A stretch of DNA of 64,000 bases from Escherichia coli (GTDB taxonomy: Bacteria > Pseudomonadota > Gammaproteobacteria > Enterobacterales > Enterobacteriaceae). Both the position numbers and the translations under genes were made by a program. Of the stretch, positions 9,295 to 10,320 are shown one piece after another (the first letter of the stretch is position 1; each line of letters begins with the position of its first letter). The DNA lies in assembly GCF_001677475.2 (NCBI RefSeq), contig NZ_CP015229.1; one strand, given 5' to 3'. The notes under the pieces were generated by a model, which was not told the DNA's origin, made no database searches, and saw only the letters and a program-made list of their open reading frames with translations.

Positions 9295-10320
9295 ATGGCA
9301 ACAATAAAAGATGTAGCGAAACGAGCAAACGTTTCCACTACAACTGTGTCACACGTGATCAACAAAACACGTTTCGTCGCTGAAGAAACGCGCAACGCCG
9401 TGTGGGCAGCGATTAAAGAATTACACTACTCCCCTAGCGCGGTGGCGCGTAGCCTGAAGGTTAACCACACTAAGTCTATCGGTTTGCTGGCGACCAGCAG
9501 CGAAGCGGCCTATTTTGCCGAGATCATTGAAGCGGTTGAAAAAAATTGCTTCCAGAAAGGTTACACCCTGATTCTGGGCAATGCGTGGAACAATCTTGAG
9601 AAACAGCGGGCTTATCTCTCGATGATGGCGCAAAAACGCGTCGATGGTCTGCTGGTGATGTGTTCTGAGTACCCAGAGCCGTTGCTGGCGATGCTGGAAG
9701 AGTATCGCCATATCCCAATGGTGGTGATGGACTGGGGTGAAGCAAAAGCTGACTTCACCGATGCGGTCATTGATAACGCGTTCGAAGGCGGCTACATGGC
9801 CGGGCGTTATCTGATTGAACGCGGTCACCGCGAAATCGGCGTTATCCCTGGCCCGCTGGAACGTAACACCGGCGCAGGCCGCCTTGCCGGTTTTATGAAG
9901 GCGATGGAAGAAGCGATGATCAAGGTGCCGGAAAGCTGGATTGTACAGGGTGATTTTGAACCTGAATCCGGTTATCGCGCCATGCAGCAAATACTGTCGC
10001 AGCCGCATCGCCCTACTGCCGTCTTCTGTGGTGGCGATATCATGGCAATGGGCGCACTTTGTGCTGCTGATGAAATGGGTCTGCGCGTGCCGCAGGATGT
10101 TTCGCTGATCGGTTATGATAACGTGCGCAACGCCCGCTATTTTACGCCGGCGCTGACCACGATCCATCAGCCAAAAGATTCGCTGGGTGAAACAGCGTTC
10201 AACATGCTGTTGGATCGTATCGTCAACAAACGTGAAGAACCGCAATCCATTGAAGTGCATCCGCGGTTGATTGAACGCCGCTCCGTGGCTGACGGCCCGT
10301 TCCGCGACTATCGCCGTTAA
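9295..10320 (+). CDS. purR: Purine repressor (LacI family)
   Basis: 341 aa with N-terminal helix-turn-helix ([23 protein letters not shown]). Confidence 0.97.
9323..9338. promoter_or_regulatory. Second PurR operator, inside the purR coding region
   Basis: GAGCAAACGTTTCCAC, a PUR-box-like palindrome at codons 10-15. Confidence 0.65.

Follow-up and report, generated by a model that had tools for sequence, protein, structure and literature searches.

Gene order and the four-base stop overlap

All positions refer to the window, the 64,000-nucleotide stretch of DNA that was analyzed. The locus is the E. coli chromosome segment ydhP-cydH-purR-punR-punC-cfa, at 99.4% identity to strains such as 042. 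Two transcription regulators are encoded there with their 3′ ends facing each other: PurR, the LacI-family purine repressor, which has 100% protein identity to K-12 PurR, and PunR, whose homologues carry domains PF00126 and PF03466 and are named PunR. PunR is a LysR-family activator of punC (PMC8376909). The features at the point where the two genes meet are as follows.

9295..10320, plus strand: purR coding sequence, 341 aa, ending in ...FRDYRR and the stop (ORF list; RefSeq for E. coli 042 and K-12)
10318-10320, plus strand: purR stop codon TAA (ORF list)
10317..11249, minus strand: punR (ydhB) coding sequence, 310 aa, ending in ...EETPATGD and the stop (ORF list; RefSeq)
10319 down to 10317, minus strand: punR stop codon TAA (reverse complement of 10317-10319)
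10317..10320, no strand assigned: TTAA common to both stop codons (sequence and reference annotations)

Read directly, the four bases at 10317-10320 are T-T-A-A, in the context ...CGC CGT TAA TCA.... An earlier note on this DNA had described purR and punR as convergent genes whose stop codons overlap in TTAA and leave no intergenic space; the sequence, the ORF list, and the RefSeq annotations agree on the overlap, and the coordinates in the ORF list and RefSeq leave zero intergenic bases between the two genes. The RefSeq annotation of K-12 MG1655 (purR, 1737844..1738869; punR, complement 1738866..1739798) contains the identical 4-nt overlap, as does that of E. coli 042. Of 5426 complete E. coli genomes, 5423 carry the 100-nt junction at ≥95% identity, and both genes are annotated beneath it. 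An annotation artifact was ruled out, given that the punR frame has no earlier in-frame stop and that the end of purR is identical across strains. The purR-punR overlap is a fixed feature of E. coli that had been annotated previously.

Overlaps of exactly this length are a known class. When a gene ends in Y-TAA or Y-TAG, one of the three opposite-strand frames automatically receives a TAA or TAG stop, and a 4-nt overlap is therefore the expected end point for a convergent ORF that arrives in that frame. Lillo and Krakauer reported that the length distribution of convergent overlaps jumps at 4 nt, with the tetranucleotides CTAA, TTAA, CTAG, and TTAG (PMC2174442). Of the 58 convergent overlaps counted in E. 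coli, 19 had a predicted rho-independent terminator for one of the genes (PMC2174442), which in an overlapping pair necessarily lies within the coding sequence of the pair. Stop-codon loss followed by 3′ extension is considered the origin of convergent overlaps (PMC2716372). Eight convergent pairs lie in the surrounding 50 kb of K-12, with gaps of 50, 161, −4, 39, 40, 11, 63, and 42 nt, and purR-punR is the low end of this continuum of tightly packed convergent genes. Opposite-strand coding genes, facing 3′ ends, and the tetranucleotide TTAA, the features that define the YTAR class, are all present at the junction. The overlap is thus an ordinary, already known arrangement. Among the convergent neighbors in the window, cfa/ribC (14012-14052) and mdtK/ydhQ (16281-16322) are separated by gaps of 39 to 40 nt.

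Several observations concern the region upstream of purR. The enterobacterial sRNA family STnc550 has a full-length match in Rfam (8904-9294, minus strand; 396 bits, E = 8e-103), which spans the small ORF cydH (ynhF) and reaches the base before the purR start codon; the STnc550 "sRNA" family appears to be the cydH mRNA together with its leader. The hairpin CGAGGGAGCGCGTTCTCCCTCG, 3′ of cydH (8877-8898, minus strand), coincides with a very abundant K-12 Term-seq end (1737422, minus strand; ~650,000 reads) located ~4 nt after the stem. A pur-box-like palindrome, AGGCAAACGTTTACCT, forms an operator-like site at 9235-9250; purR is autoregulated via operators downstream of its promoter.

A stem-loop in the last codons of punR and the mapped purR 3′ end

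Two further features lie just past the purR stop, inside punR.

10327..10356, plus strand: conserved GC-rich stem-loop (inverted repeat, fold, and covariation)
10358..10359, plus strand: purR mRNA 3′ end (Term-seq, K-12 1738907/1738908; PMC7815308)

In purR-sense RNA, the stem-loop consists of a 12-bp stem and a 6-nt loop located 7 to 36 nt 3′ of the purR stop, wholly within punR codons 298-308 (in the last 13 codons). Its core arms are a perfect inverted repeat (TGCGGGAG, 10329-10336, and CTCCCGCA, 10347-10354) that begins nine bases past the stop. The surrounding 91 nt (10290-10380) fold with an energy of −31.6 kcal/mol (z = −3.6), and 0 of 200 shuffled sequences were as stable. An Rfam scan of 8700-11500 returned no family at the junction stem-loop. 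The sequence 3′ of the stem, CACUCCUUAUUC, contains no U-tract, with 3 U among its first 9 nt. A consensus terminator scan called 7 sites (3.5 ± 1.7 expected), none of them at the junction, whose hairpin went uncalled; downstream of punR on the minus strand, its sole call (10197-10181) was a weak stem of 5 bp within the purR coding sequence.

Published Term-seq data place the purR mRNA 3′ end directly after this stem-loop. In MG1655 grown in LB to an OD600 of ~0.4, the end maps to 1738907 on the plus strand (Adams et al. 2021, PMC7815308, Supplementary file 1), and under a second growth condition it maps to 1738908 on the same strand (PMC7815308, Supplementary file 1); it is classified as primary for purR and antisense to ydhB (PMC7815308). 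We checked these coordinates on the K-12 sequence, where the listed 61-nt string corresponds to 1738857-1738917 and 1738907 is base 51. The end lies 38 to 39 nt past the purR stop, 2 to 3 nt past the extended stem, and 4 to 5 nt past the core stem, with counts (~900 to 1600) near the low end of the data set (PMC7815308). From its position at 10358/10359, it follows that the purR mRNA extends across TTAA and over the final 14 punR codons. No minus-strand (punR) 3′ end near the junction is present among the Term-seq ends of PMC7815308, in which punR may be below detection. The bicyclomycin table of the same study (PMC7815308, Supplementary file 2) contains no Rho termination region within 17386xx-17397xx, where low expression may mask such a region, and the TERMITe supplements make no mention of purR or punR.

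These data bear on two further statements of the earlier note. It had reasoned that the overlap leaves no room for separate terminators, which does not hold, because 3′-end signals need not be intergenic: a conserved stem-loop sits inside punR at 10327-10356, and the purR 3′ end maps directly after it. The note had also proposed Term-seq across 10250-10400 and had named clean termination of both transcripts before the overlap as the outcome that would speak against its view. In the published data, the purR end falls at 10358/10359, beyond the overlap, and a minus-strand end is not listed. Each mRNA needs its own stop, and both stops lie within the overlap, so functional purR and punR mRNAs necessarily overlap for 4 nt or more; they could not both terminate ahead of the shared stops, and the proposed refutation is therefore unusable.

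Other Term-seq ends in the vicinity were recorded. Two more plus-strand ends map to K-12 1737833 (window 9284), 11 nt upstream of the purR ATG (PMC7815308), and to K-12 1737952 (window 9403), 108 nt into the purR ORF (PMC7815308). Ends that are both primary and antisense are found for ribC (K-12 1742568, minus strand) and mdtK (1744868, plus strand). The ribC 3′ end lies 4 nt after a GC-rich palindrome, ATCGCCCCCGGAGAGGGGGCGAT, without a U-tract, the same pattern as at the purR end.

Conservation of the stem-loop and the origin of exactly four bases

We scanned species-representative genomes and recovered 80 Enterobacteriaceae loci, 78 of which reach the purR side; each of these 78 has purR and punR as convergent neighbors. 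The gap was defined for these 78 species as the distance between the stop codons, determined by rescanning to the first in-frame stop. Apparent overlaps of 53 to 702 nt were artifacts of tblastn alignments that cross stop codons, and all disappeared after this rescan. The same convergent adjacency was found in four outgroup loci (Serratia, Erwinia, Pantoea, and Yersinia). The states of the junction are as follows.

Gap −4 nt: 27/78 species (overlap TTAA or TTAG, read on the punR strand)
Gap +1 to +5 nt: 5/78 species
Gap +14 to +22 nt: 45/78 species
Gap +45 nt: 1/78 species
Outgroup Serratia plymuthica: −4 nt, PunR of 314 aa, hairpin entirely within the tail
Outgroup Erwinia sp. 9145: −4 nt, PunR of 304 aa
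Outgroup Pantoea sp.: +72 nt, PunR of 303 aa, two hairpins
Outgroup Yersinia pseudotuberculosis: −138 nt, PunR of 376 aa as annotated

Among the species at −4 are Escherichia, most Citrobacter, Salmonella arizonae, Trabulsiella, Silvania, Leclercia, Intestinirhabdus, and some Pluralibacter. Members of the +14 to +22 group, among them Klebsiella, Raoultella, Enterobacter, Kluyvera, Kosakonia, and Lelliottia, encode a 303-aa PunR that ends at a stop codon within the hairpin loop (e.g., CCGGAATAACCGG). In Y. pseudotuberculosis (L087 2501-3631), the frame passes the EWL motif, a ~95-nt spacer with two hairpins, and 138 nt antisense to purR, and the resulting 376-aa PunR reflects a stop lost in this strain or a choice made in annotation. 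A Klebsiella pneumoniae PunR cluster (P0008, 2969 members) has 334 aa, compared with 303 to 310 aa elsewhere, probably from an upstream start-codon call.

A hairpin just past the purR stop was found in 78 of 78 distinct junctions, with a mean energy of −20.7 kcal/mol and z < −2 in each case relative to 5′-half shuffles. The arms change together across species, as in GCGGGAG/CTCCCGC and GGACGCC/GGCGTCC, and further in GCGGCGTCGG/CCGGCGCCCGC, GCGAACGC/GCGTTCGC, and GGGTGCCGG/CCGGCACCC. Coding sequence makes up the 3′ arm in all species but not the 5′ arm of the gap species, which nonetheless covaries with the 3′ arm; protein constraint therefore cannot account for the covariation. Covariation was quantified in two ungapped alignments, each with one fixed pairing register; because loop lengths differ, a MAFFT alignment (A2) was set aside. 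In alignment A3 (36 species), double changes occurred in 8 of 13 pairs (43 cells), a level reached in 0 of 500 shuffles, and slid registers gave at most 5 pairs, in controls not phylogenetically corrected. In alignment A4 (23 sequences, mostly from overlap lineages), with controls likewise uncorrected, double changes occurred in 5 of 12 pairs, and 88% of cells were paired, compared with 33 to 51% in slid registers. The variation in arm sequence speaks for a structure and against recognition of a specific sequence by a protein. On these comparisons, the hairpin is under selection as a structure.

Both strands can fold this hairpin. Across 77 species, the mean energy was −20.6 kcal/mol in the purR sense and −19.4 kcal/mol in the punR sense; being nearly as stable on the punR strand, the hairpin could conceivably have a role for both transcripts. 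G-U pairs were more common in the purR sense (50 versus 25; Wilcoxon P = 0.004, not corrected for the tree).

The overlap arises at the variable end of PunR.

10320..10340, minus strand: variable C-terminal tail of PunR, seven codons (ETPATGD), encoded by the hairpin 5′ arm and linker

PunR is conserved through ...YLGDSETLN(K/R)EWL(R/Q)xP, and the residues beyond vary by genus (ETPATGD, EAPAQQA, EAPDSAD, and others). Klebsiella, Enterobacter, and Kluyvera, whose PunR has 303 aa, do not have the seven-codon tail; where these genera have the stop codon, E. coli has the sense codon GAG (10340-10338), and its punR reads seven codons further, across the loop, 5′ arm, and linker, to the TAA at 10319-10317. 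RNA structure sets some of the tail residues: Pro-Ala (CCC GCA) is complementary to CTG CGG, the codons for Leu-Arg in the conserved EWLRE motif. Its non-conservation suggests that the tail is neutral for PunR.

The end of purR determines where such an extension can stop. In 77 of 78 species, purR ends in CGY followed by TAA or TAG, and this tetranucleotide supplies a stop on the opposite strand. When the loop stop was removed in simulation from the gap species, those in the matching frame (gap of 17 or 14) came to end at −4 (9 cases) or +5 (4 cases), and those in other frames mostly ran 39 to 972 nt into antisense purR. No overlaps of that length were found among the 78 species. The frame limit on stop loss and the absence of long overlaps together indicate that the 4-nt overlap is a tolerated outcome of a missing loop stop.

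On this comparative evidence, PunR would be functionally complete at about residue 303, with its stop in the hairpin loop in many genera. Where the loop stop is missing and the frame is right, translation would continue through the 5′ arm for seven unconstrained codons, and the complement of purR ...CGY-TAA would act as a backstop, limiting the extension to an overlap of 4 nt. The −4 state recurs with different PunR lengths in Serratia (314 aa) and Erwinia (304 aa). The change may have run either way, by loss or by gain of the stop, given that these two outgroups are also at −4. A 279-aa ORF lies antisense to most of purR (9421-10260, minus strand), and antisense frames are open for up to 972 nt in some relatives; this ORF is probably a non-coding consequence of purR codon usage.

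Formation of the purR 3′ end and relation to known systems

The reading that we favor, with a probability of roughly 0.7 for the whole explanation, hairpin and trimming included, is that the functional element of this junction is the conserved stem-loop 7 to 36 nt past the purR stop and that the TTAA overlap, itself without function, is a passive by-product. By the Term-seq map, purR transcription passes TTAA into the last punR codons, and the steady-state mRNA ends 2 to 3 nt past the hairpin, at 10358/10359. The absence of a U-tract and the position of the end tight against the stem make release further downstream, followed by trimming, most likely. Polymerase would most likely be released there by Rho acting on untranslated C-rich RNA or by weak hairpin-assisted termination, and 3′-5′ exonucleases would trim the RNA back to the protective hairpin. 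The mapped purR end would thus be a protected, trimmed 3′ end and not a release site. One stretch is a weak candidate for Rho loading.

10357..10436, plus strand: C-rich, G-poor stretch, untranslated in the purR sense; weak candidate Rho-loading region

In the 80 nt past the hairpin, C occurs 25 times and G 14 times (C/G = 1.79, falling to ~1.2 thereafter), a modest bias that is only suggestive of Rho loading.

In E. coli punR, the hairpin is part of the translated sequence and precedes the stop, and it therefore cannot be a simple terminator for a complete punR mRNA. This arrangement weighs on the first alternative, collision-assisted bidirectional termination, according to which the hairpin pauses both polymerases and head-on collision, together with trailing polymerases, ends both transcripts. 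Work by Ju et al. in 2019 (Ju, Li, and Liu) reportedly described bidirectional terminators between convergent genes. Such terminators resemble neither intrinsic nor Rho terminators, and their hairpin fixes the site of collision (Wang et al. 2022, bioRxiv 10.1101/2022.10.23.513370). The junction offers a convergent pair, a hairpin that folds on both strands, and no U-tract in either direction; it matches the published description of bidirectional terminators, which do not look like intrinsic ones and need a stem-loop, and no Rho region has been reported there (PMC7815308). However, a 3′ end is mapped on the purR strand only, and the low count of the purR end and the lack of a called punR end mean that the polymerases may seldom meet. 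In addition, the G-U pairs favor purR-sense RNA (50 versus 25), and a punR transcript that ended at the base of the translated hairpin would lack its stop codon. We regard this alternative as doubtful. The earlier note had called convergent collision possible given the lack of intergenic space and of room for separate terminators; it is possible, as it would be for any convergent pair with or without a stop overlap, and the data at this junction lend it no support.

A second alternative, which we consider unlikely, is a non-canonical intrinsic purR terminator inside punR, in which the strong stem and the weak U-containing tail CACUCCUUAUUC would release polymerase in place, possibly with help from NusA or NusG and followed by trimming of one to a few nucleotides. 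The GC-rich 8- to 12-bp stem is stable and conserved, the 3′ end is precise under two growth conditions, and partner-embedded terminators are reported for E. coli convergent overlaps (PMC2174442). Against this, the tail contains only 3 U in 9 nt and the scan makes no call; the mapped end lies 2 to 4 nt past the stem rather than the usual 7 to 9 nt; and the tail is fixed by the PunR codons NKEWL, so that it could not have evolved toward a U-tract.

A broader claim, that the hairpin is a two-way 3′-end element and that collision or an antisense overlap of at least 42 nt makes purR and punR output reciprocally dependent, appears quite improbable. If it were true, it would tie the repressor of purine synthesis to the activator of purine uptake. 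In the −4 lineages, the punR stop lies 8 nt outside the hairpin; punR transcripts trimmed to the hairpin would be non-stop mRNAs, which would lower PunR output. Its antisense component taken alone, a regulatory duplex of at least 42 nt between the purR and punR 3′ regions that is cleaved by RNase III or otherwise couples their levels, is the least credible reading: complementary 3′ regions must exist, given a purR mRNA that extends to 10358 and a complete punR mRNA that extends to at least 10317, the adjacency holds in 78/78 Enterobacteriaceae loci and 4 outgroup loci, and PurR and PunR govern opposite arms of purine supply (PMC8376909), but the junction ranges from −4 to +72 nt with no conserved extent of overlap, the synteny may merely reflect the punR-punC unit adjoining purR, and there is no experimental sign of coupling, the PunR study reporting conserved synteny instead (PMC8376909).

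By itself, the overlap carries little weight, being present in the reference annotation and belonging to a textbook class. What our analysis adds is that a conserved stem-loop in the apparently dispensable PunR tail marks the purR mRNA 3′ end, and this arrangement, too, belongs to known kinds. The junction is a worked example of how zero intergenic distance does not imply missing 3′-end signals. It also presents a structure under RNA-level selection that is embedded in the seemingly dispensable tail of a neighboring protein and dictates part of the sequence of that tail. Finally, the complement of Y-TAA would serve as a backstop that lets an upstream stop be lost without harm, but in a single frame.

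Compared with the known YTAR overlaps, purR-punR shows no difference in kind. Both involve two real opposite-strand genes whose stops share the central TA (PMC2174442), and both are consistent with a 3′ extension that meets no earlier stop and is ended by the complement of the partner's stop (PMC2174442, PMC2716372). To this class, the present locus adds a comparative series for purR-punR that contains both states, the loop stop and the −4 overlap, together with their frame dependence.

The stem-loop can be set beside three kinds of 3′-end element. Like a canonical intrinsic terminator, it is a GC-rich stem-loop of 8 to 12 bp shortly after a stop codon; unlike one, it lacks the ~5 or more U expected in the 8 nt beyond the stem, and the 3′ end lies too near the stem to fall 7 to 9 nt away within a U-tract. 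With bidirectional terminators it shares the convergent gene pair and a palindromic hairpin without U-tracts on both strands, but it lies inside punR, upstream of the punR stop, rather than between the genes, and an end has been mapped on one strand. The third kind comprises the trimmed ends of Rho-dependent transcripts: Dar and Sorek found that such transcripts end precisely after stable stem-loops without U-tracts (PMC6061677), including ends within downstream coding regions, and with a mild bias of C over G beyond (PMC6061677). The purR end resembles these in that a stem-loop abuts a precise end, there is no U-tract, and the end lies inside a neighboring gene; the mild excess of C over G beyond it is only suggestive. 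It differs in that no bicyclomycin-sensitive region is listed at purR-punR (PMC7815308), where low expression may hide one. The purR end is a candidate member of this group.
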